Shown piece after piece: positions 275-13,461 of a stretch of 13,756 bases of DNA. The stretch is from Candidatus Sumerlaeia bacterium (GTDB lineage Bacteria > Sumerlaeota > Sumerlaeia > SLMS01), in assembly GCA_038208905.1 (NCBI GenBank), contig JBBQYG010000106.1, positions 1-13,756 of the forward strand. Reading direction: 5' to 3'. The number at the start of each line of letters is the position of its first letter. Within the stretch, counting starts at the first letter, position 1. The position numbers and the translations under genes are program-made. The notes beneath the pieces are model-generated. The model saw only the letters and a program-made list of their open reading frames with translations, searched no databases and was not told the origin of the DNA.

Positions 275-847
275 ATGCGCCGCGCCTTTACCCTTATCGA
301 GCTTCTCATCGTCGTCGCGATCATCGCGATCCTGGCCGCCATCGCCGTTCCAAATTTTCTGGAGGCCCAGACCCGTTCCAAGGTCAGCCGCGCCCAGGCG
401 GATAACCGGACGATTGCCACCGCGGTGGAGGCCTACATGGTGGACAACAACCGCTACATGCCGTTTGCCGTTCCCGTGCGCGGGCTCATCGGCGAGCAGC
501 AGCTTTACCTCCTTACCTCGCCCATCGCCTACATTACCAGCGTCCCGGCCGACGTCTTCCAGTCCTCCAAGCCGACGCTCTCGACCAACGCCTCCAAGAA
601 CTTCAGCGAATTCTATGGCCCGATCCCGCGCTACTACGTCTATTCCGACAGTACCTTCCTACTCAACGGCAGGACGGGCTGGTCGGTCCGCTGCATGGGG
701 CCCGACACGGACTTCGACTTGGTGGGCCATGTGCCCGACAACGACACCGCGGTGCCAGAGAATGGGAAGTACGACCCGACCAACGGCACGCTCTCCAACG
801 GCGATGTCCTGCGCGCCGGCGGCGGCGTCACGTTCTTCAATAGCTAA
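275..847 (+). CDS. Prepilin-type N-terminal cleavage/methylation protein (GspG/type IV pilin-like), 190 aa
   Basis: MRRA|FTLIELLIVVAIIAILAAIAVP class III signal with E5. GspG-like helix RSKVSRAQADNRTIATAVEAYMVDN, then LTSPIAYITSVPADVF, GPDTD and C-terminal YDPTNGTLSNGD. RBS present. Confidence 0.93.
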   Translation: MRRAFTLIELLIVVAIIAILAAIAVPNFLEAQTRSKVSRAQADNRTIATAVEAYMVDNNRYMPFAVPVRGLIGEQQLYLLTSPIAYITSVPADVFQSSKPTLSTNASKNFSEFYGPIPRYYVYSDSTFLLNGRTGWSVRCMGPDTDFDLVGHVPDNDTAVPENGKYDPTNGTLSNGDVLRAGGGVTFFNS

Positions 848-859
848 GGAATCGCTCCC

Positions 860-1966
860 GTGCCCCCACACACCAGATTCCGCCTTGGCGTCATCGGCCT
901 TGGCGACATGGGCAGCGGCCACTGCCGCGGATTTCACGGGCTCCCCAACTGCGAGATCGTGGGCATCGCCGATCCCGACGAGGGGAAGCTCCGCGTGCAG
1001 GAGTTTCCCTGGGGCGACGCGCCGCCGCCGTTCTTTCGCGACCACCGCGAGATGATTGCGAAGACGCGCCCCGACGCCTGCGTGGTTGTGGTGCCCGATC
1101 ACCTCCATCGCGCCGTGTGCGAGGACGTGATCGAGGCCGGCTGCGACGTGTTCCTCGAAAAGCCCATGGCGACGAACATCGGGGACACCGACGCGATCAT
1201 CGCAAAGGCCCGCGCGGCGAATCGCATCCTGCAAATCGGATTGGTCTATCGGTACTCCAACTTCTATCGCCGCATGGCCGACATCGGGCGCGAGCCCGGG
1301 CACGAGACCATGCTGATGTGGTGCAAGGAACTCCGCCAGTGCTTTCCCCAGCGCCCGTGGTTCTACAGCCAGGCGATGACCGGCGGCAGCATCGTGGAGA
1401 AGGACTGCCACCACTTCGACATTTTCAACTGGGTGATCGGCTCGGAGCCCATCCGCGTCTTCGCCAGCGGAGGTCAGCACGTGTGGAAGCCGGGTTCGAC
1501 CATCGCGTGCGGCTATTGTCCCGATCCGCCGCGCCGCATCGACGAGATTGACACCGTGGACCACGCCATCGTCACGGTGGACTATCGCAACGGCGCCAAG
1601 GCGAGCCTGATCCTGTGCATGTACTTGCAGCCCCAGAACGTGATGCCCGAGGGGCTTGAGATCGGCGGCATCGCGAGGAGCGGGCGGCAGTTCTGCGGAT
1701 ACGGCGACGCGCGCCTCGGCGTGGGCGGGCTCGGCCAGCCGTTCGAGTGGGAGGAGATCGACATGGTCTCCGACAACGACGGCATCGGCCACATCGGCTG
1801 CCAGGAGCAGCGGCGCGACTTCCTGCGCTGTCTGGAAACGCGCAAGGAGCCCTTTGCGAACTGGAAGGTCGGGCGCGATTCGCTGGTCGTCGCGCTGGCG
1901 GCGGAGAAGTCGATCCAGACGGGCCAGCCCGTCGACCTCTCGGAGTATGCCCCATGTCCCGCATGA
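860..1966 (+). CDS. Gfo/Idh/MocA family NAD(P)-dependent oxidoreductase, 368 aa
   Basis: GTG start with AAGGA RBS. Rossmann motif LGVIGLGDMG, VVVPDHLH, VFLEKPMA, LQIGLVYRY, GGSIVEKDCHHFD, and C-terminal ALAAEKSIQTGQPV. Confidence 0.93.
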   Translation: MPPHTRFRLGVIGLGDMGSGHCRGFHGLPNCEIVGIADPDEGKLRVQEFPWGDAPPPFFRDHREMIAKTRPDACVVVVPDHLHRAVCEDVIEAGCDVFLEKPMATNIGDTDAIIAKARAANRILQIGLVYRYSNFYRRMADIGREPGHETMLMWCKELRQCFPQRPWFYSQAMTGGSIVEKDCHHFDIFNWVIGSEPIRVFASGGQHVWKPGSTIACGYCPDPPRRIDEIDTVDHAIVTVDYRNGAKASLILCMYLQPQNVMPEGLEIGGIARSGRQFCGYGDARLGVGGLGQPFEWEEIDMVSDNDGIGHIGCQEQRRDFLRCLETRKEPFANWKVGRDSLVVALAAEKSIQTGQPVDLSEYAPCPA

Positions 1967-3024
1967 CCAATCCAATTCCGCTGCGCGTTTCCGCTCCGGG
2001 GCGGATCTGCCTCTTTGGCGAGCACCAGGACTACCTTGGCCTTCCCGTGATCGCGGCGGCCATCGACCTGCGCATCGAACTCGCGGCCACTCCGCGCGCC
2101 GATGCGCTGTTCGTTGTCGAGATGCCCGACATCGGCGAACGCCTGGAGCTGGACCCCAACATGGAGAACCGCTATCGCCACGGGCGCGACTACATTCCCG
2201 CGGCGGCGAACGTGCTGCGGCGCGAGGGGCTTTCCTGGGCCACCGGCTACGACGTTACCGTGACGAGCGGTATTCCCATCAACGCGGGGGCGTCGAGTTC
2301 TTCCGCGTTGCAGGTGGCGTGGTGCGCGCTGCTGCTGGCGGCGGCGGGCGATCCGCGCGCGGGCGACGCGGAGTCCATCGCGCGTGTCGCGCATCAGTCG
2401 GAGGTCACCGAATTCGATTCCCCCGGCGGCATGATGGACCATTTCTCCTCGGCGGTTGGCGGCGCGATCTGGCTGGACTGCCGTCCACCCTATGCGGTGA
2501 CGGACCTGCCCGCGTGGATGGGCGAGTTTGTGCTGGTGGAGTCGGGAATCCCCAAGGACACCAACGGCGTTCTGGGCGAGAAGCGGCGTCGCGCGGAATC
2601 ACTTGGCGCGGAGCAATTGCTCGACAACGCCGACACGTCGCAACTCTCCGCCGCCGACCGCGCGATCCGCGAGGCCGTGGTGCAGAATCGCAAGCTGACG
2701 CTGGCTGCGCGCGCGCTGATCGAGACCAGCGAGGATGCCGACCTGCTGGGCGTCCTCCTCTCCCGCCATCACGATCAGTTGTCGGGGAACCTGGGCGTTT
2801 CGCTGCCGGAGATCGACCGCCTCTTGGCGCGCGGCATTGGGGCGGGTGCGCTGGGGGGAAAGATCAACGGATCGGGATGCGGCGGATCGTTCTTTCTGAT
2901 GTGCCCGGGCCAGGGCGCGCGGATTGCGGCGCTGTATCGCGGCGTCGGCCTCTCGGCGCACGTTGTCAGGATCGGAAAAGGCGTGGCCGTGGAAGCAGAT
3001 CAACGGATGGAGCTGACATCATGA
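1963..3024 (+). CDS. galK: Galactokinase-like GHMP sugar kinase, about 353 aa (alternative start 1954)
   Basis: APGRICLFGEHQDY (galactokinase GRxNLxGEHxDY signature), IPINAGASSSSA ATP loop, GGMMDH, GALGGKINGSGCGG. ATGA overlap with the upstream stop. Exact substrate is uncertain. Confidence 0.85.
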   Translation: MTNPIPLRVSAPGRICLFGEHQDYLGLPVIAAAIDLRIELAATPRADALFVVEMPDIGERLELDPNMENRYRHGRDYIPAAANVLRREGLSWATGYDVTVTSGIPINAGASSSSALQVAWCALLLAAAGDPRAGDAESIARVAHQSEVTEFDSPGGMMDHFSSAVGGAIWLDCRPPYAVTDLPAWMGEFVLVESGIPKDTNGVLGEKRRRAESLGAEQLLDNADTSQLSAADRAIREAVVQNRKLTLAARALIETSEDADLLGVLLSRHHDQLSGNLGVSLPEIDRLLARGIGAGALGGKINGSGCGGSFFLMCPGQGARIAALYRGVGLSAHVVRIGKGVAVEADQRMELTS

Positions 3025-4382
3025 AGCGAATCTTGGCGGCAATTGCAGTCGTTGTCTCGGCGGTTTCCCCATCGTGGGGCGCGGGGATGAAGTGGCTGGC
3101 GCCGGGCGAGGCGGCGAAGATCACGGGGAAGGCGATCTACTACTTCCGCCAGGATCAGGTGGCACTCTGCATGATTGCGGAGGAGGACGTCTGGACGGAC
3201 CAGCGCGTGATCGCGGCGGCGGGGAGGATGCCATGCGTTCTGATCGATCTCGCCAGCGACAGCGCGACCGGGCTTGCCCGCGAGCACGGTGTCCTGGTGG
3301 TGCCGACCACGCTCCTCGTCGAGAACGGCAAGGAGATCGGGCGGCTCTCTCGCAGCACGAGGCCCGAGGAGTACGTGGCGCTGGCCGAAGGCAAACCCAT
3401 CGCCGCCACGCCCATGCCCGCCGCGCCATCGACCACCACCGCGCGCGTTGTAGAGGCCGCCGATCCCACCGGAGACGGCGCGCCCGCGCCTCTGGACATC
3501 ACGATGGTGAAGGGCGCGATCACTGCGGAGGGGATCAACCTGGAGCTGACGCTGGCAGGGCCCGTGAACACGAGCTTCGCCGCGGCCTACAACTTCTTCC
3601 TCGATGCGGACCAGAGCGAGGCCACCGGCCATGCGGGCGCCGCGTTCAAGGGCGCCGACTTCCTGGTGCAGGGCGCCACGGTGTTCCGCTTCAACGGCAA
3701 GACGCAGGAAGAGTGGGGCTGGGAGCAGATCGGCGCCGCCAAGAATAACGCCGCGGGAAATACCGTCCGCGTGGCGATTCCCGCCCGCCTGATTCCTCCC
3801 TCGCCCGCGCCGTTTGTCTATGCATGCAGCCAGAACGAGCAGTGGACGACGATCGACTGGGCCCCGGCGACGGCGCGGCTGTCGCTGGCCGGAGTCGCCG
3901 CGATCGTGCCCGTGGCCGCGGCGCCCGCGGCGCCGGGCGCCGAGTTCAAGGACGCCGCCGGCGACGGGCCCGGCTCCGAGGATCTCCTTGGCGCTGCGGT
4001 TTCCTCCTCGGGCGACAATCTCGCGATTCGCCTCTCCTTTTCGGCCCCGCCCGTTGTCGAGCGCCAGCACGTGTTCATCGACGCCGACAAGGTCGAGCCA
4101 ACCGGCTACAGCGACGGCGCGCGCAACGGCGCCGATTTCATGATCGAGGGCAACACGCTCTATCGCCACAAGGGGGGCTCCACCGGATGGGATTGGAACA
4201 GCCTGGGCGCCGTGGAGTTCAAGATCGAGGGGAACACGGGCACCTATACGGTTCCGCGCTCGCGCATCGGCGCCAAGGCGGGCGCGGCGATCAAGCTGTG
4301 GTTCACGACGACCGGCGCCGATTGGGCCCCGGCGGATTTCCTTCCCGACGCGGGAACGGTGGAGCTTGTGATTCCCCAATGA
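3021..4382 (+). CDS. Secreted protein, 453 aa: signal peptide, thioredoxin-like fold lacking CxxC, P/A/T linker, two tandem DOMON/CBM9-like domains
   Basis: ATG 3021 overlaps the galK stop. Signal MKRILAAIAVVVSAVSPSWG. LAREHGVLVVPTTLLVENGKEIGRL resembles a thioredoxin C-terminal half. Repeats share DxxGDG, F[LI]DAD...TG[HY], GADF[LM][VI][QE]G and WxW..[IL]G. Confidence 0.8.
   Translation: MKRILAAIAVVVSAVSPSWGAGMKWLAPGEAAKITGKAIYYFRQDQVALCMIAEEDVWTDQRVIAAAGRMPCVLIDLASDSATGLAREHGVLVVPTTLLVENGKEIGRLSRSTRPEEYVALAEGKPIAATPMPAAPSTTTARVVEAADPTGDGAPAPLDITMVKGAITAEGINLELTLAGPVNTSFAAAYNFFLDADQSEATGHAGAAFKGADFLVQGATVFRFNGKTQEEWGWEQIGAAKNNAAGNTVRVAIPARLIPPSPAPFVYACSQNEQWTTIDWAPATARLSLAGVAAIVPVAAAPAAPGAEFKDAAGDGPGSEDLLGAAVSSSGDNLAIRLSFSAPPVVERQHVFIDADKVEPTGYSDGARNGADFMIEGNTLYRHKGGSTGWDWNSLGAVEFKIEGNTGTYTVPRSRIGAKAGAAIKLWFTTTGADWAPADFLPDAGTVELVIPQ
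3459..4376 (+). repeat. Protein-level tandem duplication of a ~140-aa domain (about 3459-3885 and 3948-4376)
   Basis: FFLDADQSEATGH...GADFLVQGATVFRFNG...WGWEQIG aligns with VFIDADKVEPTGY...GADFMIEGNTLYRHKG...WDWNSLG. An Ala/Pro linker separates the copies. Confidence 0.85.
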
Positions 4383-7300
4383 TCATGCGCCGCCCGATCT
4401 ACGCCCTCGCCGCCGCGATGGTCATGGCCTCCGCGATTCCGGCGGAGATTTCCCTCCAGCAGAAGGGGAACCAGATATACATCGTCCGCGATGGAGTCCT
4501 CGTCTCCCAGCGTCCCGCGCGCTTCGTGGTGCAGGAGTGGCAACGCCGCCAGGCCGACGCCCCCGCCAACGCTGCGCGGGCCGGTGTTGGGTCCATCGTG
4601 GAGACCGACGCGCTGGAATCGGTGCTTCTCTCTCCGGCCAATGACGCATGGACCGAAGAGCCTGTCTCCGTCATTGTCGGGGAAGGCAACGTCTATACAC
4701 AGGAACTCGTCTTTCCGCGAGAGCTTTCGGTCACAGCCGAATGGTCCGCGGAGAACGGAGGCGTCCGCGTGAGGGGCAAGGTGCGCAACCTTTCCACCAC
4801 GGCGGAGCGGCGCGAGATTCCGATCACATTCTCGCTCGCGATTCCCGTCGATGGAGAATCGCTGACGTGGCTGGCCGACAATCATCGAAGCGAGGCCATC
4901 GAGGGCACGACCGAGATCCTCAACACCGTGGCCACCATGGCGGGCCCTCGCGGCGCGATGTCGCGCTATCCCTTTGCCGCCATCGCGGGGGATCGGCAGC
5001 TAGCCGTGGGGATGCCGCTGGATCAGCCGCGCATCCAGCGCCTGCTGTGGGATGGCAAGCACCGCGCGCTGGTGGCGGAGGTTGACGTGACGATCAGCCC
5101 CGACACGGAGAAGTTCCCCGGCTATGTTCCATTCGATTTCATGCTCTTCGATTTCGAGGCGGAATTCGGCTTTCGCTCCGTCGCCAACGCCTACTACGCG
5201 CTGAATCCCGATTCCTATTCCACCCGCATCGACTATCAGGGCCAATGGATGCCCTTCACCCAGATCGACAGTGTCCAGCGCGCCGAGGATTTTCGCTTCG
5301 CGTTTCACGAGTACCACCCCAATGTCTCCGTCGCCTACAACACCGCGCAGGGGATCGAGTCGCTGGTCTATTGCGAGCCGCCGGTGCAGTACATCAACGT
5401 TGCGGCGAATGTGCCGAAGGAGCTGGCTTCGCTCCTTGGGATTCTCGATGGCATGGGGAACACGCAGGGCTCCCAGGTGCGGGGCTCGGGGACGTGGGAC
5501 CGCTCGGGTAACCTTCAGGCCGCGTGGGTGGAGACGCCGTGGGCCGTGGGCGCGCGCGTGCCCACCAACGGCGATCCCGAACTGCCGCGCACCGCGCGCA
5601 ACCCGCACAACAGCTTCGACGCCAACTGGCTGCCCTATCGCGACCTGTGGCAGCGCCGCGCAGAGGACCAGCCCGCCGCGTGGAATGGCGGGCGCATCAT
5701 GGAGGGGGTGGTCGGCGCCTCGGGCCGCGCGCTGAACCTGCGCGCGGGCGAAAGCAGCGAACTCGTCCTCTCCAACGCCGCCGACCTCAAGCTCTCGATC
5801 ACCGCCATGGGCGCGCCCGGCGCAACGGTACGCGTGGGGATCGGCGACGCAGCGCAGGCGTTTCCGCTCTCGCGCAGCTTCGCCGCGCTGGAGTTCGCCG
5901 CTTCCGCCGCGCCGGGGGCGTCGCTCCGACTCACCGCCCAGGGCGGCGATGTCTATATAGACAGCATCACGGGAGCAGACGCCGCCCTCGCCAATGCGCA
6001 GTTCGACGCAGGGCGTCTCGATGAGGAGGCTGTGACAGGGCTGTATCTCGACAGCTTCGAGGGATGGGATTCCAAGGACCTGAATTTCCGGCGCGAGCAC
6101 TTCGCCACGTCGGACTATCCGCTGACCTTCGATGCGCGCACGGGCGAAACGGCGCAGGTCATCATGATGCACAATTTCGAACTCGCCGCCGAGGCGCGCC
6201 GCCGCCTTCACGCGCGCGGCGACCTGCTGATGGCCAACACGGCCCTCTATCAGTGGTCGTGGAGCGCCCACTTCCTCGACGTGCTTGGCATCGAGACCTC
6301 CTGGGGAGAGGGCGAGCGCATTGTGCCGCCCAAGATCGCCGATCTCGACTACCTGCGCACGATGCTCTATCACAAGCCCTACTGCTATTTGCAGAATCTG
6401 CGCTTCGACATGTTCCGCGGCCAGAAGGTGGAGGACTACTTCGCCCGCTGCCTGCACTATGGGATGTGGCCGAGCTTCTTCAGCTTCAACGCCGCCGAGG
6501 AGCCCTATTGGCAGAACCCCGGTCTATACAACGCCGACCGCGCCTACTTCCTCACGTTCATGGAGCCCCAGGGCCGCATGACGCGCGGCGGGTGGGAGCC
6601 TATCACGCTGGCCGCGTCGGCGAACAGGGAACTGCTGGTCGAGCGATGGGGAGGCGGCGCGTGGAAGGGAGAGCCGCTCTCCGCGGAGTCCTTCTACATC
6701 AGTATCTACAACCCCAGCGAACGGATGCAGTCCGGCGATTTGCGCGCGGATGCTCGGCTCACGGCGGAGACTGCCTATCTCGTGCTGGACGCACTGACCG
6801 GGCGCAGCGTGGAGAACCTCCTTGGCCGCGATGGATCGGTGCCCGTGCGGTTGAGGTCGCTCGGCGTGTCGTCGCTGTGGTTCGTCGCGCGGACGGAGGT
6901 CGCGCTGGGATCGGTGCTTCGGCAGGAGGTCGGCGAATTGCTCCGCCTCTCGGGGAAGTATCAGCGCTATGGCTTGATCGACGCGGCGACCGTTGCCGCG
7001 CTGAAGTCGGCGCTGGCTGCCGCGACACCGTCGGAGAGCGAGAAGGAAATTGCCAAGCTGCTGTCCACCGTGGGCGGCGAATACCGCGCCGAGATCGAGC
7101 GCTCCTATAGCACGTGGCGCATCGCGTCCGCCGCGTTGGAGGAAGTCCGCGGCGGCAAGGTGGAACCCATCGCGCTCCCGCGGAGCATTGCGCGCGGCGT
7201 GGAGTATCGCATTCAGGCGCCCGCCAGTTCTCCCGTTGAACTTGAACTGAAAGTCACCACCTCCGCCGGGGAGCATAACATCGCATTTCGCGATGGCGTG

Positions 7301-8173
7301 GCGCAGTTTGTGGCTCCCGCCACACTGGAGGACGGCGTCGCGATCGGGTTCCTGGTTTCGCGCGCGGGCGCGGCGGGATTCGCGCCGTATCTGGAATCGT
7401 CGGCGGTGCTGGTGCCGCCGGTGGAACTACTCGGCCTGCCGCGCCGCGTGGTGGTGGGTCCGCCCACGATGCTGACGGTGGCCGTCAGGAACAACCTGCC
7501 GACGAAGGCCGTCGGTGAAGTGTCGTTCGCCGCGAGCAGCCTCGCCTCGGCGTCGCCGGTGCCGCTCGAACTCGCCCCCGGAGAGGAACGCGCCATCCAA
7601 CTCCGCCTCGTTGCCGCAAGCCGCCCGGCAATGGACATGCACGAGCCGCTGGCCATCGGGTGGAACGCGGGCGACGACGATGCGGGCGCGGCCTCCGCGG
7701 AGGTGCCGCTGGTGCTGCTCTCCGCCGACGCCAGCCTCCTGCGCACGAGCGGCGTGACCGTGACGGTCGATTCATTCTACTTTGGATACGACAAGCTGGC
7801 GATCACCGATGGCGTGCGCGATGGCGCTGGTCTCGACTGGACGGAGGCCGCGTGGGCCAGCGACGAGGGCATGGTCCCGCACTGGGCCCAGTTCGATTTC
7901 GAGAAGCCCACGATGCTCCGCGAGGTGCGGATATTCTGGGCCTTCGACAGCGGCAAGCACTGGACCTCCCGCGAGCTGACCGTTGAGGGCTGGCGCCCCG
8001 GCGCAACCGCGTGGGAGGTGCTCGCGCGGCACGGCGACGGGACATTGGTTCCCGAAACGCGCCTCGCGTTTCCCGCGGGCGAATATACACGCATCCGCCT
8101 GTACCAAGCACCGGGTGGCGGCGCGGCGGAGCGGCCCGGCCTGCTGTGGCTTGGCGAGGTGGAGGCGCGATGA
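4379..8173 (+). CDS. Large secreted multidomain putative glycoside hydrolase, 1264 aa, with inserted CBM-like domain, Ig/NEW3-like domain and C-terminal F5/8C (discoidin/CBM32-like) domain
   Basis: ATG 4379 overlaps the upstream stop (alternative 4385). Signal MIMRRPIYALAAAMVMASAIPA. Aromatic-rich core with YCEP, GLYLDSFEGW, LLMANT and LDVLGIETSW. LTVAVRN...LAPGEERAI is Ig-like. AITDG...AWAS...PHWAQFDFEKPTMLREVRIFW...LWLGEVEA is discoidin-like. The CDS is secure; hydrolase function is inferred. Confidence 0.75.
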   Translation: MIMRRPIYALAAAMVMASAIPAEISLQQKGNQIYIVRDGVLVSQRPARFVVQEWQRRQADAPANAARAGVGSIVETDALESVLLSPANDAWTEEPVSVIVGEGNVYTQELVFPRELSVTAEWSAENGGVRVRGKVRNLSTTAERREIPITFSLAIPVDGESLTWLADNHRSEAIEGTTEILNTVATMAGPRGAMSRYPFAAIAGDRQLAVGMPLDQPRIQRLLWDGKHRALVAEVDVTISPDTEKFPGYVPFDFMLFDFEAEFGFRSVANAYYALNPDSYSTRIDYQGQWMPFTQIDSVQRAEDFRFAFHEYHPNVSVAYNTAQGIESLVYCEPPVQYINVAANVPKELASLLGILDGMGNTQGSQVRGSGTWDRSGNLQAAWVETPWAVGARVPTNGDPELPRTARNPHNSFDANWLPYRDLWQRRAEDQPAAWNGGRIMEGVVGASGRALNLRAGESSELVLSNAADLKLSITAMGAPGATVRVGIGDAAQAFPLSRSFAALEFAASAAPGASLRLTAQGGDVYIDSITGADAALANAQFDAGRLDEEAVTGLYLDSFEGWDSKDLNFRREHFATSDYPLTFDARTGETAQVIMMHNFELAAEARRRLHARGDLLMANTALYQWSWSAHFLDVLGIETSWGEGERIVPPKIADLDYLRTMLYHKPYCYLQNLRFDMFRGQKVEDYFARCLHYGMWPSFFSFNAAEEPYWQNPGLYNADRAYFLTFMEPQGRMTRGGWEPITLAASANRELLVERWGGGAWKGEPLSAESFYISIYNPSERMQSGDLRADARLTAETAYLVLDALTGRSVENLLGRDGSVPVRLRSLGVSSLWFVARTEVALGSVLRQEVGELLRLSGKYQRYGLIDAATVAALKSALAAATPSESEKEIAKLLSTVGGEYRAEIERSYSTWRIASAALEEVRGGKVEPIALPRSIARGVEYRIQAPASSPVELELKVTTSAGEHNIAFRDGVAQFVAPATLEDGVAIGFLVSRAGAAGFAPYLESSAVLVPPVELLGLPRRVVVGPPTMLTVAVRNNLPTKAVGEVSFAASSLASASPVPLELAPGEERAIQLRLVAASRPAMDMHEPLAIGWNAGDDDAGAASAEVPLVLLSADASLLRTSGVTVTVDSFYFGYDKLAITDGVRDGAGLDWTEAAWASDEGMVPHWAQFDFEKPTMLREVRIFWAFDSGKHWTSRELTVEGWRPGATAWEVLARHGDGTLVPETRLAFPAGEYTRIRLYQAPGGGAAERPGLLWLGEVEAR

Positions 8174-9225
8174 TCGCCACGATGAAACACTCGACGCTCG
8201 CTGCGGGGCAGATCCTTGCGCAGGGTGAAGTCCAGCGACTTCTTGCTGCGCCGTTCGCGGCAAGTGGCGATCTCGATGCTGCGCTGCGAAACCTGGGCGC
8301 ATGGCTGGAATCCATCGGCTACTTCGCGCACCTGACCGACACCAACGAGCGACTGAGCTTCCGCGACGACGCGTTGGGCCTGATGTTGCGCCTGCAAGTC
8401 AACTACTCTCGCCTCGCCTACCGCAGCCCCGCCGCCGACCGCCGCGTGGCGTGCCCGCTCTGCATCGAGAACATCGGCACTCCGGGCAAGGAACTGCTCC
8501 GCGTGTTTCATTTCGCGCTGGCCGGGCGGCCCTTCTTCTCGCATCCCACGCCGTTCCCCCTCTGCGAAGGTCACTTCGTCGTCAACTCGCTCGCGCACGA
8601 ACCGATGGCCATCGGGGAGCGCGGCTTGCGCGAATCCGCGGACTTCGTCGCGCAAACGCAGTCGTGGCTCGTCGCCTCCAATAGCGATGTGGAATGGGCC
8701 GGCGCGTCGGTGCTGGGGCACCACCACATGCAGGTGTTCGCCGGCCTCGTGCTGCCGCTGGAGTCGGCGCACCCGCTGCACGATCTTACACTATCCGAAT
8801 GCGAGGGATCCTTTCTCGACTGGCCCTGTCCGGTGGTTCGCCTGGCGGGAGATACGGAACCGACGCTCGCAGCCGCCAGCCGACTGATCGCCGCGTGGAA
8901 GGCGATTGATCCGGGCAAGGCCACGTTCAACTCCCTGATGCGTAGGAAGGCAGGCGGCGGACTCGCGATTCATCTGCTGTTTCGCCATCCGGACTTCCGG
9001 ACGCAGGAACCGTTGCGCCAGATCAAGTCCGAGGGAATCGGCATCATCGAAATGGCGGGCGAGGTGATCGTGCCGCCGATCGCGGGGAAGTCGCGCGAGG
9101 AAAACCGCGCATACTTCGAGCGCGAGGGACTTGCCGTCATCCGCGGAATCATCGGCCAGAACGCCCCATGGCCGGCCCAGTGGACGCCGGAGTGGTTTGC
9201 GGATCTGGCGCGGAAAATCGGATAG
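8170..9225 (+). CDS. galT: Galactose-1-phosphate uridylyltransferase-like protein (class II / Gram-positive-type GalT, HIT superfamily), 351 aa
   Basis: ATG 8170 overlaps the upstream stop (alternative 8182). CPLCIENIG, AGASVLGHHHMQ (HxHxQ; compare GGSILSHDHFQ) and IKSEGIGIIEMAGEVIVP (compare HIKKENIGLIEVMGLAILP). Shares an operon with a galK-like gene. Confidence 0.8.
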   Translation: MIATMKHSTLAAGQILAQGEVQRLLAAPFAASGDLDAALRNLGAWLESIGYFAHLTDTNERLSFRDDALGLMLRLQVNYSRLAYRSPAADRRVACPLCIENIGTPGKELLRVFHFALAGRPFFSHPTPFPLCEGHFVVNSLAHEPMAIGERGLRESADFVAQTQSWLVASNSDVEWAGASVLGHHHMQVFAGLVLPLESAHPLHDLTLSECEGSFLDWPCPVVRLAGDTEPTLAAASRLIAAWKAIDPGKATFNSLMRRKAGGGLAIHLLFRHPDFRTQEPLRQIKSEGIGIIEMAGEVIVPPIAGKSREENRAYFEREGLAVIRGIIGQNAPWPAQWTPEWFADLARKIG

Positions 9226-9249
9226 GGAAAGGAGAATCGGAGAAAGGCC

Positions 9250-9300
9250 TTGACCATACGCGGCCCTAATTTATTCTGTCTTAAATTAAAGAACAAAACA
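9250..9300 (+). promoter_or_regulatory. Putative sigma70-type promoter with downstream palindrome
   Basis: TTGACC 9250-9255, 16-nt spacer, TATTCT 9272-9277. Imperfect palindrome TCTTAAATTAAAGA at 9279-9292 (12/14). RBS GGAG at 9361-9364. Confidence 0.6.
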
Positions 9301-9369
9301 TAGAAACCCCGGGATTAGCCTCTCGCGCCGCGAGACACCCCCACACCGACCAAATCAAAAGGAGAAGCC

Positions 9370-10533
9370 ATGAAGAAGACAGCCTTTCTCGCTCCCATCG
9401 CCGCCGCCCTCGCGATCCTCGCGTCGTCCGCAACCGCCCAGGTCTGGAGCCCGGGCATCGTCATCGATGGAAACTTCGACGACTGGGACGGTCAGGTGCC
9501 CGCCCTGATTACGGACGTGACCGGCGACGGCGGCACCGGCCGTGACATCGTCGCGATCTACCTCGGCAACGACCAGAACAACCTCTACGTCCGCATTCAG
9601 GGCGCCAACGCCGATGCGTATGACGGCAGCGAATTCTCCGGCATTGACAAGGACAACAACGTGGCCACGGGCTTCAACCTGTTCGGCGCGGGCAAGGGAT
9701 CCGAGACGATGGTCGCCGGCGCCAGCGTCGTTGGCCAGGCCGGGGGCGCATTCAACGAGGGCGCCGCAACGCCGGGCTCCGTTCCCTTCGGGCCGTTCGT
9801 CGCTTCGACTGACATTGAGTACGCGATCGCGCTGAACACGGTCGTCCCCACCGCCATCGCTTCCTTCCCGGCCCTGGGCCAGATCATTGGCTTCGTGTAT
9901 GGCGACGGCAACGGCGGCGCGACCGACGTCGCCAGCGGCGACTACACCCTTGCCACCGGCTCGGCGGCGACGCCGGGCGCGACGATCGATCTCTTCGCGA
10001 ACTACGGAACCAATGCCGCGGGCAAGACGCGCGACGGCAGCCCCACGGGCGGCTTCTCCGCCGCGCGCAGCAACTTCGCCCCGGGGGGCCCGCTCGGCGT
10101 TGCCGACACCGCGCTCGGCGTCAGCCACACCACCGCCGCCGTGGACTTCGGCCTTTCGCTGGTCACGCATCGCTTCGCCACGCCGGTGAATATCACCGGC
10201 CACAACCGCGTCACGCTGGACGTTTTCGGCAATGCCGCGGCCGCCAACAAGAACCTCTGGCTTGGCCTCGTCGATACCGGCGGAACCTACTATGCCGTCG
10301 GCGCGGTCTTCCCCACCACCGCAACCTGGACCACTGTGGACGTCGGCCCGACGAGCGGTTGGTTCTCTCAGGTGGCCGGAGACGACAACGTCCTCGACCT
10401 CGCCAACATCGTCGAGTGGCGCATCGGCCTTCAAGAGACCACCCCCGCCGCGCCGGGCACCTTCGCCGTGGCCTATGACAACCTGCTGGCGCCGACAACG
10501 GCCGGCGTCGCCGAATGGATGACGATGGAGTAA
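9370..10533 (+). CDS. Secreted non-catalytic carbohydrate-binding-like protein, 387 aa (DOMON/CBM9-like + CBM11-like domains, short Trp-containing C-terminal tail)
   Basis: Signal MKKTAFLAPIAAALAILASSATA|Q. First domain IVIDGNFDDW, DVTGDG...DI...NDQNNLYVRI, IDKDNNVATGF. Second domain PVNITGHNRVTLDVFG...WTTVDV...LDLANI...AVAYDNL. Ends AGVAEWMTME. Confidence 0.8.
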   Translation: MKKTAFLAPIAAALAILASSATAQVWSPGIVIDGNFDDWDGQVPALITDVTGDGGTGRDIVAIYLGNDQNNLYVRIQGANADAYDGSEFSGIDKDNNVATGFNLFGAGKGSETMVAGASVVGQAGGAFNEGAATPGSVPFGPFVASTDIEYAIALNTVVPTAIASFPALGQIIGFVYGDGNGGATDVASGDYTLATGSAATPGATIDLFANYGTNAAGKTRDGSPTGGFSAARSNFAPGGPLGVADTALGVSHTTAAVDFGLSLVTHRFATPVNITGHNRVTLDVFGNAAAANKNLWLGLVDTGGTYYAVGAVFPTTATWTTVDVGPTSGWFSQVAGDDNVLDLANIVEWRIGLQETTPAAPGTFAVAYDNLLAPTTAGVAEWMTME

Positions 10534-10568: not shown

Positions 10569-10603
10569 CGGCGGGCGGCGCGGGATGCGTCGCCCGCCGT
10601 TTT
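10569..10603 (+). terminator. Intrinsic terminator between convergent genes
   Basis: 13-bp stem CGGCGGGCGGCGC / GCGTCGCCCGCCG (one G-U), GGGAT loop, then TTTT. Starts 35 nt after the stop at 10533. Confidence 0.8.
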
Positions 10604-10638: not shown

Positions 10639-11268
10639 CTACTTCTTCTTCCAATCATCGTCCAGCCACGGCGAGGCCTTCACGGCGTCGAATTCGCGCC
10701 GGGCGTCCTCGCCCAGCTTGCGGTCCATCAAGTCCCAGAACCGTGGCATCGTCCACGCGGGAAAGGGGCGCTCTACGCGGCGCAGCGGGGCGCCGGGCGA
10801 GAGCGCGCCGGCGACCTCCACCGCCATGTACCAGCCGGTGACGCGCTGCTCCTTCGTCCACAGGTGGAAGCCCTTGTCTCCCCAGTGCGCGGCCAGCGTG
10901 CGGCAGGGGGCGCGCGGCCCGGCGACGCGGACGCTAACACCCCCATCGAGTTCGTACAGATCGCCCACGCACACGTCGGCATCCACAAGGCCGCCCAGAT
11001 GGAGGTTCTCTCCAAAGGAACCCGGCGGCATCGCCACCCCGGCGCGGGCGTGGCAGGCGGGATAGTGCTCGCTGGCGTAGGCGCAGAGGGCCTTGAACCG
11101 CCCCCCGTGATGGCGGGTGTCCACCTGCACATCTCCCCTGACGCCGAGCGTGTCCACGAATACAGGCCCGGGGAGGGCAACCTTTCGGATGGCGGAGGTG
11201 GCGCCGGGCTTGCCGGCCAAGGGCTCCTGCTTGCCGGAGTGAATCGAGAGCACGAGGGGCGATGTCAT
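10639..11268 (-). CDS. MOSC domain protein (YiiM-like), 209 aa
   Basis: ATG 11268 with AGGAAA upstream. GDVQVDTRHHGG, KALCAY..EHY, PGSFGENL, VCVGDLY, PRAPC (conserved Cys), TGWY, and a 3-alpha-like C-terminus. Tandem TAG stops. Confidence 0.92.
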   Translation of the reverse strand: MTSPLVLSIHSGKQEPLAGKPGATSAIRKVALPGPVFVDTLGVRGDVQVDTRHHGGRFKALCAYASEHYPACHARAGVAMPPGSFGENLHLGGLVDADVCVGDLYELDGGVSVRVAGPRAPCRTLAAHWGDKGFHLWTKEQRVTGWYMAVEVAGALSPGAPLRRVERPFPAWTMPRFWDLMDRKLGEDARREFDAVKASPWLDDDWKKK

Positions 11269-11272
11269 GGAT

Positions 11273-12736
11273 CTACTTTCCTTTCGGGCTGTTGTCGCGG
11301 CGATCCTTGGCGGGCCCCGCAACGGAGGAGAGAACCTTCACCGGCCAGTCATAGACCAACTGCAGGAGCACCGCATGAGCCGGGAGGGCCTTGGCCTCGG
11401 GCACACTTCCCAGAAGCGCCTGGGCCGCCGCCCCCAACCCCAGCATCGCCCCAAACACCACCGCGAAGGGCGCCAGCCCCGATGACTGCCCGCCCGCATC
11501 CCCGCCGTGGCGCAACCAGTCCAGCGTCACGCCAAAGATGAGTGGCGCGGCGCCCCCGCTGAGAGCAACGAGCACCTGGAACACGGTGTTGCCGATAACC
11601 TGATCCTCCCGCGGGATGGTCGCCAGCACCAGGCGCATCTGGGCAATGGCGTGGGCCGCGTTGAAGACCCCAAACAGGAAATAGGCCCCGCCCACCAGCC
11701 ACAGCCCCGGCTTGAACAGGTGGAGTCCGGCCGCCGCCCAGAACGCGCATGCCGCCAACAGCGCCCCGCCAGAGAGGCGAATTAGCGGGCGGCTCCCCAC
11801 GCGGTCGCTCAGCGAGCCCCAGTAAACCGCCGTCAGCAGCACCCCCAGCATGGTGAGCGACTGAAACTTGAGCACGGCGCCATCGGGCCAGCCGAGTTCC
11901 TCGCGGACGAAGAGCACCAGATAGACAGGGAGCGCGGCGAACGCGAAGGTCATCATCAGCACATAGCGCGTGGTGCGGCGGAACCCGGGAAGCGCCCACA
12001 GCTCCAGCGCCTTGCGCCAAATATCGGCCAGCGACCAGTTGGGCGGGCGGGCGGCGGAGGAGGAGAGGCGCGCGGGCTCTGGCGCGCGGCGCAGGCAGAG
12101 GACGCTGCCCATGCCGGCCGCCCATGCGAAAACGAACAACGCCCCGAATCGCCAGGCCGGAGGATCAGAGCCAAGGAACGCGCCGCACCCCAGCAGCGTC
12201 AGGAAGGCGCAGATGTTCATCACGCTCTGCTCCTTTCCCAGATACTGGCCGCGCTGCTCCTCGGGCACCACCTCCGCAATCCACGGGAACCAAGCCCCCG
12301 ACGCAAAACCGCGGATCGCGTTGAACCCCGCCACCGGCAGAATGAGCGCCACCGTAAGGAACATCGTCGAGAAGCCGTGGCTGGCCATCAGCGGCAGCGG
12401 CGCAATCAGCAGCAGCATGTAGGATCGAAGCCCCCAGCCCCACAGCAGCATCCGCTTGCAGCCGAAGCGATAGACCAGGTTGGTCGCGAAAAGCTGAAGC
12501 ATCACCAGCAGCGGCTGGATCGAGTTCAGGATGCCGATGGCCGACTCGCCTGCGCCCAGATACCGCGCCGTCAGCACCAGCGGCGCCCCCAGCGCGATGG
12601 TGAAGTTGACAGAGTTCAGCCCCTGAAAATAGAGAAGCCATCGAAGTTCCGGCGGAAGCGGCGGGGGAGCATGGTGGGGCTGGCGCGAAGACACGCGGGC
12701 AAGCCTTGGGCGGGGGCCAATCCGTGTCCAGCCCAT
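11273..12736 (-). CDS. MFS transporter (start uncertain: 12754, 12736 or GTG 12694)
   Basis: About 12 hydrophobic segments. LVYRFGCKRML and WGSLSDRVGSRPL (MFS motif A copies), WIAEVVPEEQRGQYLG. Stop lies 4 nt before the MOSC start. Confidence 0.9.
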   Translation of the reverse strand: MGWTRIGPRPRLARVSSRQPHHAPPPLPPELRWLLYFQGLNSVNFTIALGAPLVLTARYLGAGESAIGILNSIQPLLVMLQLFATNLVYRFGCKRMLLWGWGLRSYMLLLIAPLPLMASHGFSTMFLTVALILPVAGFNAIRGFASGAWFPWIAEVVPEEQRGQYLGKEQSVMNICAFLTLLGCGAFLGSDPPAWRFGALFVFAWAAGMGSVLCLRRAPEPARLSSSAARPPNWSLADIWRKALELWALPGFRRTTRYVLMMTFAFAALPVYLVLFVREELGWPDGAVLKFQSLTMLGVLLTAVYWGSLSDRVGSRPLIRLSGGALLAACAFWAAAGLHLFKPGLWLVGGAYFLFGVFNAAHAIAQMRLVLATIPREDQVIGNTVFQVLVALSGGAAPLIFGVTLDWLRHGGDAGGQSSGLAPFAVVFGAMLGLGAAAQALLGSVPEAKALPAHAVLLQLVYDWPVKVLSSVAGPAKDRRDNSPKGK

Positions 12737-12805
12737 CGTTCCCGCGCCTTGCATTTGTCGCCCCGCGTGGCTGACCGAGCGGCCAATTGCGGGGGGGGAA
12801 AGCCC

Positions 12806-12896
12806 TTGACACCCGGCACCCTCCAAACGTCCCTTGGAACTCCGAAAGCGTTGTTTTTCAAGACTTTTGGGATACCCAAAGACCCCCATTGGAGGA
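12806..12896 (+). promoter_or_regulatory. Possible promoter/leader of the lipoprotein gene
   Basis: TTGACA at 12806-12811 with no convincing -10. Hairpin TTTGGG-ATA-CCCAAA at 12866-12880. Strong RBS GGAGGA at 12891-12896. Confidence 0.35.
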
Positions 12897-12903
12897 TTGT
12901 CTG

Positions 12904-13461
12904 GTGAAATTCCTGAGACTGCTTCCCGCCTTGCTCGTTGCGATCGCCCTCTTGGCCTCTGGTTGCGGAGAGAGCGCGCAGGAGAAGGAAATCAAGGAGC
13001 TCTCGACGAGCCAGAAGGACCTCGCCGCGAAGGTTCAGCAGACGACCTCGGAGATCAATTCGACTCTCGGCGAGCTGAAGAAGGAAAAAGACGCCCTTTC
13101 CGCCGCGCTTTCCGGCCTTCAGGAAAGCAAAGTCCGCCTTGAAGTTCGCCTTTCCGATCTCGATTCCAAGATCGGCAACCTGAACGCCATCGTTAAGTCC
13201 AACGTGGACGAGTTGACGGCGAAGGAAGCGGCACGCGCCGCCAGCGGCGGCGGCAGCTTCTGGCGCCTGCTCCTGATCGTCATCATCGTCGTCGTCATCC
13301 TGATCGTGATCATCCGCATCCTCCGCTCGCGCAGCGAGTTCGACGACGAGGAAGAGGACTACGAGGACTTCGAGGACGACGAGGACCTTGGCTTCGAGGA
13401 CGACGAGGAGTTCGAGGACGAGGACACCAGCAACAAGAAGAAGAACAACGACGACGTCTGA
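12904..13461 (+). CDS. Lipoprotein with long coiled coil, C-terminal transmembrane helix and acidic tail, 185 aa
   Basis: GTG 12904 after GGAGGA. Lipobox MKFLRLLPALLVAIALLASG|C, then about 89 aa of heptad pattern, SGGGS, TM LLLIVIIVVVILIVII, basic RILRSR and a D/E-rich tail. Confidence 0.88.
   Translation: MKFLRLLPALLVAIALLASGCGESAQEKEIKELSTSQKDLAAKVQQTTSEINSTLGELKKEKDALSAALSGLQESKVRLEVRLSDLDSKIGNLNAIVKSNVDELTAKEAARAASGGGSFWRLLLIVIIVVVILIVIIRILRSRSEFDDEEEDYEDFEDDEDLGFEDDEEFEDEDTSNKKKNNDDV

Follow-up and report, generated by a model that had tools for sequence, protein, structure and literature searches.

Organisation of the locus

The DNA analysed here (the window, 13,756 bp) is the entire contig C106 (GenBank accession no. 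JBBQYG010000106.1) of the genome of a Candidatus Sumerlaeia bacterium (GCA_038208905.1), a 4.24-Mb assembly in 301 contigs that is 94% complete and whose nearest named relatives are metagenome-assembled genomes (MAGs) of the Sumerlaeota. It carries an operon in which a type 4 prepilin gene precedes genes for sugar-converting enzymes and exported proteins. The locus is very probably a sugar-catabolic regulon, with importer and repressor genes on a second contig, and the pilin is probably a functional member of it.

All seven genes listed in an earlier note on this DNA were found to be real. Six genes in the same orientation, separated by short gaps or overlapping (275–847 through 8170–9225), form one unit, and the seventh (9370–10533) is set off by a 144-bp gap with a promoter-like site. 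All features of the locus lie on the forward strand. The operon is preceded (178–229) by a predicted −35 box (178–183) and a ROK-type operator (206–229) with the top operator score in the genome (20.0); TTGACA is also found upstream of the operon in loci L001, L004, L028 and L090.

The first gene (275–847) encodes a GspG-like prepilin of the YDPTNG family, belonging to a locus-specific clade (N_methyl, E 3e-7). It is followed by a Gfo/Idh/MocA oxidoreductase (860–1966; Pfam E 3e-22, under all NCBIfam cut-offs) with 52–68% identity in relatives; no signal peptide was seen in this protein, and a Pfam scan at E 0.1 gave no GH109 C-terminal domain. The third gene (1948–3024, start at 1948 or 1954) encodes a GalK-like anomeric sugar kinase of the GHMP type, with a GalKase_gal_bdg domain and galactokinases as top PDB matches (E 5e-20). 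At the end of the operon, a GalT2-like hexose-1-phosphate uridylyltransferase (8170–9225) matches galT_2 over about 155 residues (93–248, E 9e-19) and has no PDB sequence match. The earlier note had named these two enzymes GalK and GalT. Their catalytic motifs are kept: the sugar-binding E-H-x-D-Y and the catalytic Arg and Asp of the kinase, aligned to human GALK1, are invariant in 7/7 aligned proteins, as is H-x-H-x-Q of the GalT2-like protein. However, both fall below the curated equivalog cut-offs (105.6 versus 443 bits and 83.3 versus 226.65 bits for the kinase; 68 versus 650 bits, with no full-length match, for the GalT2-like protein).

Between these enzymes two exported proteins are encoded, each with a signal peptide. 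The first (3021–4382) consists of a thioredoxin-like N domain without CxxC (weakly Thioredoxin_2) and two beta-sandwich-like repeats, one of which weakly resembles the family of the 9370 protein (E 7.5e-5). It had no Pfam match at E 0.1 and no sign of a hydrolase, and is the least conserved member of the cluster (about 29% identity; absent from L004). The second (4379–8173, 1264 aa) is predicted to be an unclassified glycoside hydrolase with a beta-sandwich, a TIM barrel with an inserted domain and a C-terminal domain resembling carbohydrate-binding module (CBM) family 32. The previous description of the secreted proteins as glycan-binding or hydrolytic is not confirmed for the 3021 protein.

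The gap in front of the seventh gene (9250–9291) holds the promoter-like site (9250–9277) and a second ROK-type operator (9268–9291), with the second-highest score genome-wide (18.1). The gene itself (9370–10533) encodes an exported, two-domain lectin-like protein ending in the tryptophan tail of Sumerlaeota (proteins with this tail are called tail-tagged below); its ESM Atlas matches, CIA30-type (0.92) and CBM9-type (0.88), are leads only. Homologues at E≤1e-15 occur in 9 of the 75 phylum genomes, all of them genomes that carry the cluster. A terminator-like hairpin (10569–10599, 14-pair stem and T run) closes the locus. The rest of the window (10639–13461) encodes a MOSC protein, a transporter of the major facilitator superfamily and an acidic-tailed coiled-coil lipoprotein, and shows no synteny with the cluster in relatives.

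Importer, repressor and shared operator on a second contig

The locus had been described as lacking an importer. Within the window no assembly gene of a type II secretion system (T2SS) or type 4 pilus and no SusC/D, TonB or ATP-binding cassette (ABC) gene was found, as the earlier note had stated, but an ABC importer is encoded on contig C20, and the missing importer proved to be a contig-edge artefact. In all 8 relatives with enough fetched DNA upstream of the operon (G053, G056, G054, G038, G066, G040, G041 and G035; G002 and G001 were too fragmented for this comparison), an SBP_bac_1 lipoprotein and two permeases are encoded there. A ROK repressor and a GalE-like epimerase are part of all eight loci, relocated in some (the ROK gene in two), and a GNAT acetyltransferase gene is present in five. 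The set expected of an ABC-based sugar locus, namely a solute-binding protein (SBP), two permeases, a regulator and a glycosidase, was co-located in 8/8. The earlier term 'pilin-led' is correct for a single transcription unit only.

In the genome of the window, the importer, ROK and GalE-like orthologues are found at C20:139–5888, with 58–75% identity to L001 (40% for GNAT); a DUF4874/DUF4832 hydrolase gene is also on C20, and the ROK gene stops 138 bases from the contig end. The repressor is nearest to NagC. An MsmK-like ATPase encoded on C63 (11900–13024), 74% identical to one beside the G040 locus, probably serves the ABC importer as a shared subunit. Past the DUF4832 gene (C20:7739–16544, L068; and L061 5991–7418), a tail-tagged protein of 634 aa is encoded, along with two large proteins that are exported, one FG-GAP/immunoglobulin-like and one DUF4955 pectate-lyase-like; these did not appear in the loci fetched from relatives.

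A 24-bp palindromic operator matrix, trained on 17 intergenic regions of relatives only, was used to score 78,360 AT-rich windows. The four highest-ranking sites in the genome were C106:206 (20.0), C106:9268 (18.1), C20:4459 (13.8) and C20:5942 (12.7), followed by a site scoring 10.6. These four precede the pilin gene, the 9370 gene, the SBP gene and the galE/DUF4832 pair. Because the best sites all lie on these two contigs, the operator search points, independently of the assembly, to a single regulon comprising the C20 and C106 halves.

Positions 3–147 of the window form a 145-bp dispersed repeat (no strand assigned) that resembles a miniature inverted-repeat transposable element. It has terminal inverted repeats and a long terminal hairpin, occurs in tandem copies on C46, and gave 38 matches in the genome, 17 of them touching contig ends; several assembly breaks are due to it. 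The start of C106 and the left end of C20 both lie inside one such repeat, with a 141-bp overlap containing one mismatch. With the repeat left out, an ordinary stop codon would lie about 35 bases ahead of the −35 box, similar to L001. The repeat was spanned neither by a second assembly (L033, which also stops in it) nor by contigs of four runs. A physical join of C20 and C106, with the link hidden by the repeat, is unproven.

The pilin belongs to a locus-specific clade

The pilin exceeds the superfamily cut-offs (PF07963, 30.1 versus 21.2 bits; TIGR02532, 32.7 versus 16.3 bits) and has a class III signal peptide, a hydrophobic helix and Glu5. Its head ends in YDPTNG, as do those of 134 of the 150 best family representatives. 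Identification as a canonical GspG was rejected (TIGR01710, 45 versus 88.85, over residues 3–64 only; PF08334, 15.3 versus 21), as was a DUF1559 or H-X9-DG prepilin (no PF07596 match at E 0.1). The gene is not part of a gsp operon; no assembly genes were present in the locus of any relative examined, and the machines are encoded on other contigs.

Thirty YDPTNG-type pilins, including that of the locus, are encoded in the genome, and the family comprises about 2,400 clusters at E≤1e-30, only two of which are above the plateau for the locus clade. The head of the locus pilin is 53–71% identical to seven orthologues and 32% to an eighth, versus 20–29% to the 29 paralogues in the genome, and the orthologous clade has a support of 99/96. 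Over eight genomes, mean pairwise identity was 62% for the pilin head, 54% for GalK, 51% for GalT, 65% for Gfo and 69% for a permease. The head is strongly constrained, with invariant Arg, Tyr and Asp positions. Rank correlations of its identities with those of other cluster genes (0.44–0.70) were no higher than among the other genes; they reflect kinship and were not used as evidence. A Pfam scan gave no carbohydrate-binding family for the head, and its AlphaFold2 model was of low confidence (pLDDT 34.6). A co-fold of the pilin (residues 31–190, 50-row alignment) with the 9370 protein (24–387, 26 rows) scored 0.00; controls were not folded, and the result speaks neither for nor against binding.

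Of the 75 phylum genomes, 12 had the locus-type pilin, 13 had the hydrolase and 11 had both; in 13 genomes (including G006, G008 and G064) only the best 56 of more pilin candidates were scored, so absences there are softer. In 9 of the 11 genomes with both, the pilin gene lies inside the sugar locus, where it was kept through two rearrangements. In G035 it is on a separate contig among three genes for tail-tagged proteins, and in G001 it lies between a DUF4832 gene and one for a tail-tagged CBM11-like protein; the tail-tagged neighbours of both displaced pilins have domains in common with the 9370 family. As read from orthology and co-inheritance, membership of the pilin in the sugar locus holds. 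In G060 (L096 1879–5979) the same GalK/GalT pair stands behind genes for a GH123 beta-N-acetylgalactosaminidase and a tail-tagged protein; the 12 kb fetched there contained no prepilin motif.

Neighbours of the paralogues and secretion machines

For the other 29 pilins, the two nearest genes to either side (104 proteins) were compared with those around 28 random anchors (103 proteins), one of which was the C20 half of the window's own locus; gene classes were set post hoc. By a strict count, 13 of the 104 neighbours versus 2 of the 103 controls were sugar genes (p=0.0055).

Tail-tagged exported proteins are a stronger class of pilin neighbours than sugar genes. The genome encodes 47 tryptophan-tail proteins by pattern, the 9370 protein among them, and 33 have a crude signal peptide. 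A tail-tagged exported protein adjoins 6 of the 30 pilins versus 1.6% of other genes, and is within three genes of 9 of the 30 versus 4.8%; since the tail pattern was tuned on examples, p-values for this adjacency are overstated. Within the 9370 family (P0065–P0087), 14 of 23 members have the tryptophan tail and nine a P-V-E-L-type tail at the same position (one of the nine read by eye), which suggests that the two may be interchangeable terminal signals.

The host genome is diderm (Omp85 is present). In the 94% complete genome, neither barrel nor plug of a TonB-dependent receptor was found, nor an OprB porin (SusD was not searched separately). TonB-dependent receptor barrels were found in 12 of the 75 phylum genomes, one in each, an unusual situation among diderms that degrade polysaccharides; of the 11 cluster genomes, 8 had no barrel match, among them G066, which consists of one contig. 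Since no such receptor was found, the outer-membrane step of sugar uptake is not explained by known receptors. The earlier note had named a dedicated importer just outside the window as a finding that would speak against its proposal; one exists for the inner-membrane step, but no TonB-dependent receptor was found, so that the note's idea stands as far as the outer membrane is concerned.

Four secretins and 17 PilB/PilT/GspE-type ATPase matches are encoded elsewhere in the genome, and pilMNOPQ-like and gspE–K-like clusters lie, by our reading, on other contigs. These secretins and assembly ATPases, together with orthology and the shared operator, support the idea that a locus-specific pilin is loaded onto common machinery at other sites in the genome.

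The hydrolase and the putative substrate

The fold of the 4379 hydrolase resembles those of retaining alpha-glycosidases, with a tie between GH129, GH36 and GH66; alpha-N-acetylgalactosaminidase and alpha-galactosaminidase are among the top folds. By sequence, the protein matched no Pfam hydrolase family, neither PF11308 (GH129) nor solved GH129 members, and its catalytic part had no Pfam, NCBIfam or PDB match. Identity to NagBb (GH129, 5wzp), FpGalNase (GH36, 9ayu) and CITase (GH66, 3wnk) is 8–12%, and unlike these enzymes it has an extra inserted domain and a CBM32-like C terminus. In G040 (L027 9201–13028) the hydrolase gene is interrupted by one in-frame TAG, giving frames of 851 and 422 aa.

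The DUF4874/DUF4832 hydrolase had matches in 9 of the 75 genomes, all of them cluster genomes. As far as the available parts of the reports go, DUF4832 genes flank Gram-positive pel operons (PMC7112168), and SIR_1591, a DUF4832 hydrolase, disrupts Pel aggregates (PMC12345266). In three relatives a weakly GH114-like domain is fused to 9370-type domains: a 898-aa exported protein of G035 (L100 10101–12794) combines such a barrel with fn3 and an entire 9370 homologue, and related barrels are found in G038 and G041. PelG was searched for and not found. The DUF4832 link, the GH114-like domain, the alpha-N-acetylgalactosaminidase and galactosaminidase folds, the NagC-like ROK repressor and the lack of a PelG match together make a polymer of the Pel or galactosaminogalactan (GAG) type, by guilt by association, somewhat more probable than not as the substrate. 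A biosynthetic reading of the locus was rejected in view of the ROK, ABC and exported hydrolase genes and the failure to find PelG.

Proposed function and alternatives

Our tentative proposal is that the window holds half of a conserved regulon, probably repressed by ROK, for the breakdown and import of an alpha-linked polymer rich in N-acetylgalactosamine or galactosamine (Pel/GAG type), and that the pilin is a substrate-induced subunit for export or display by a shared machine. An inducer would release ROK from the four operators. The polymer, held by the 9370-type lectin, would be cut by the exported DUF4874/DUF4832 enzyme, and the 4379 protein, as a retaining alpha-glycosidase, would trim the oligomers. 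These would pass the outer membrane by a route that the proposal leaves unspecified and be imported by the ABC transporter with the shared MsmK-like ATPase of C63. The GalK-like, GalT-like and GalE-like enzymes, with the GNAT acetyltransferase, would then convert galactose, galactosamine or N-acetylgalactosamine into UDP-sugars of central metabolism. A common machine, either of type II secretion or a type 4 pilus, would use the pilin to export or display tail-tagged lectins and hydrolases of the locus; this role, which we consider possible though not quite probable, is favoured over pilus-driven import, adhesion only and a passenger gene.

Competence pili pull DNA through a secretin into the periplasm. 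By analogy, the pilin head might bind the polymer and a retracting type 4 pilus might draw it through a secretin, replacing SusC/D. The strong constraint on the head with its invariant Arg, Tyr and Asp, the secretins and ATPases of the genome, the scarcity of TonB-dependent barrels in the phylum, the lack of any barrel, plug or OprB match in this genome, and the pilus-linked glycan foraging proposed for Akkermansiaceae (PMC13174399) would all fit. However, the head matches no carbohydrate-binding family, unrecognised porins could perform the outer-membrane step, the displaced pilins adjoin tail-tagged proteins and not ABC genes, and most paralogues lie beside non-sugar genes, and we regard import as unlikely. 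A co-induced pilin could instead build or decorate a pilus that only holds the cell on polymer-coated surfaces, such as biofilms of other microbes, without a part in export or import. A common substrate alone would then suffice for the shared operator and the co-inheritance; type IV pilus genes are reported for all Sumerlaeota MAGs studied, in the part of the survey available (PMC8092238), and attachment is the role proposed for the Akkermansiaceae locus MUL2 (PMC13174399). As the repeated adjacency to tail-tagged exported proteins is left unexplained, adhesion alone appears quite unlikely.

Several findings weigh against our proposal, and some of them would suit a passenger, a member of a scattered family of about 30 paralogues that entered the cluster a single time and has since been passed on with it by vertical and horizontal transfer. 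The link between pilin and locus is not strict: G043 has an orphan orthologue (L092 9738–10433) by a lexA-like gene in a genome without a hydrolase match, G006 and G008 have short hydrolases and no pilin match among the scored candidates, and of the 14 genomes carrying the GalT-like gene, 5 have no member of the pilin clade. The expected presence of the pilin in orthologous galK/galT clusters fails in these five; they also lack the hydrolase, so that the pilin goes with the hydrolase and lectin module rather than with GalK/GalT. The carriers are related by descent or have a transferred block in common (the patchy spread of the cluster suggests block transfer), and co-occurrence counts are therefore not independent. 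The predicted enrichment of sugar genes near paralogues stands by the strict count, but is not significant by a lenient one (15/104 versus 7/103, p=0.11) or at the level of loci (8 of 29 pilins versus 2 of 28 anchors, p=0.08). With 21 of the 29 paralogues in non-sugar contexts, the notion that pilins of this type generally mark sugar loci was rejected. With regard to the assembly, exact 141-base links from the repeat lead to contigs other than those of the C20–C106 join. Nevertheless, across five GTDB families conservation of the pilin head exceeds that of GalK, GalT and the hydrolase, and the pilin was kept through rearrangements and heads the operon behind the best operator site, which makes a mere passenger very unlikely.

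Comparison with known systems

Polysaccharide utilisation loci (PULs) of Bacteroidota, with SusC/SusD, and the ABC-based PULs of the Gram-positive type (gpPULs) combine co-regulated hydrolases, binding proteins, an importer, a regulator and sugar-activating enzymes. The present locus has the same combination. Unlike Bacteroidota PULs, it has no adjacent susC/susD pair. Its inner-membrane part is an ordinary set of ROK and CUT1 ABC genes, but the host is diderm, and the outer-membrane step is unexplained. In the N-acetylhexosamine route of Bifidobacterium (lnp), GalK, GalT2 and GalE are of the Leloir type. The kinase, uridylyltransferase and epimerase here likewise keep their catalytic motifs, but all three are under the equivalog cut-offs, and a GNAT acetyltransferase and the Gfo/Idh/MocA enzyme are added.

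The system that the earlier note took as its best candidate for an undescribed one has, in principle, a published precedent. According to the available parts of the account, Verruconatronum alginivorum has a pulG-like pseudopilin (pgaptmp_000050) in an alginate-induced operon (pgaptmp_000046–60), with 67 homologues, and T2SS export of enzymes was proposed (PMC13274419). In both organisms a single pseudopilin of an expanded family (67 there, 30 here) lies in a polysaccharide operon and the T2SS is encoded elsewhere, but phylum and substrate differ. V. alginivorum has TonB-dependent transport and an SSF symporter, whereas the Sumerlaeota genome has an ABC importer and no TonB receptor was found; orthology, an operator and tail-tagged partners, as described here, do not appear in those parts (PMC13274419). 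In Akkermansiaceae, a type IV-like pilus locus (MUL2) was proposed for glycan foraging, and a pilus is similarly tied to glycan use. MUL2, however, is one conserved, assembly-linked locus with PilM and an archaeal-like pilin, in contrast to the substrate-specific paralogue inside an enzyme operon here (PMC13174399). The Sumerlaeota survey, in its available part, names pili for twitching only (PMC8092238). Our literature search, largely without subscription papers, gave none on these pilins in Sumerlaeota sugar loci and no Pel/GAG utilisation locus or catabolic pathway.

To our knowledge, the expanded pilin-like families of Planctomycetota-Verrucomicrobiota-Chlamydiota-type and related phyla have no assigned function. 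The locus is a tractable case: its pilin forms a single clade of strict orthologues, its regulon is defined, the guess at the substrate can be tested, and two of the enzymes are amenable to expression and assay. With a substrate that is indeed of the Pel/GAG type, the regulon would be a catabolic pathway for these biofilm polymers, and its hydrolases would be candidate biofilm-dispersing enzymes. In a broader and rather improbable scenario, Sumerlaeota would solve the outer-membrane step of polysaccharide use with exchangeable pilins, each specific for a substrate, that are fitted to one common type 4 filament machine. This locus would be the version for feeding on Pel/GAG biofilm matrices of other microbes, with a new hydrolase family and filament-borne tail-tagged lectins. 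Should the pilin provide the outer-membrane step, it would represent an alternative to SusC/D in a phylum largely without TonB-dependent receptors.

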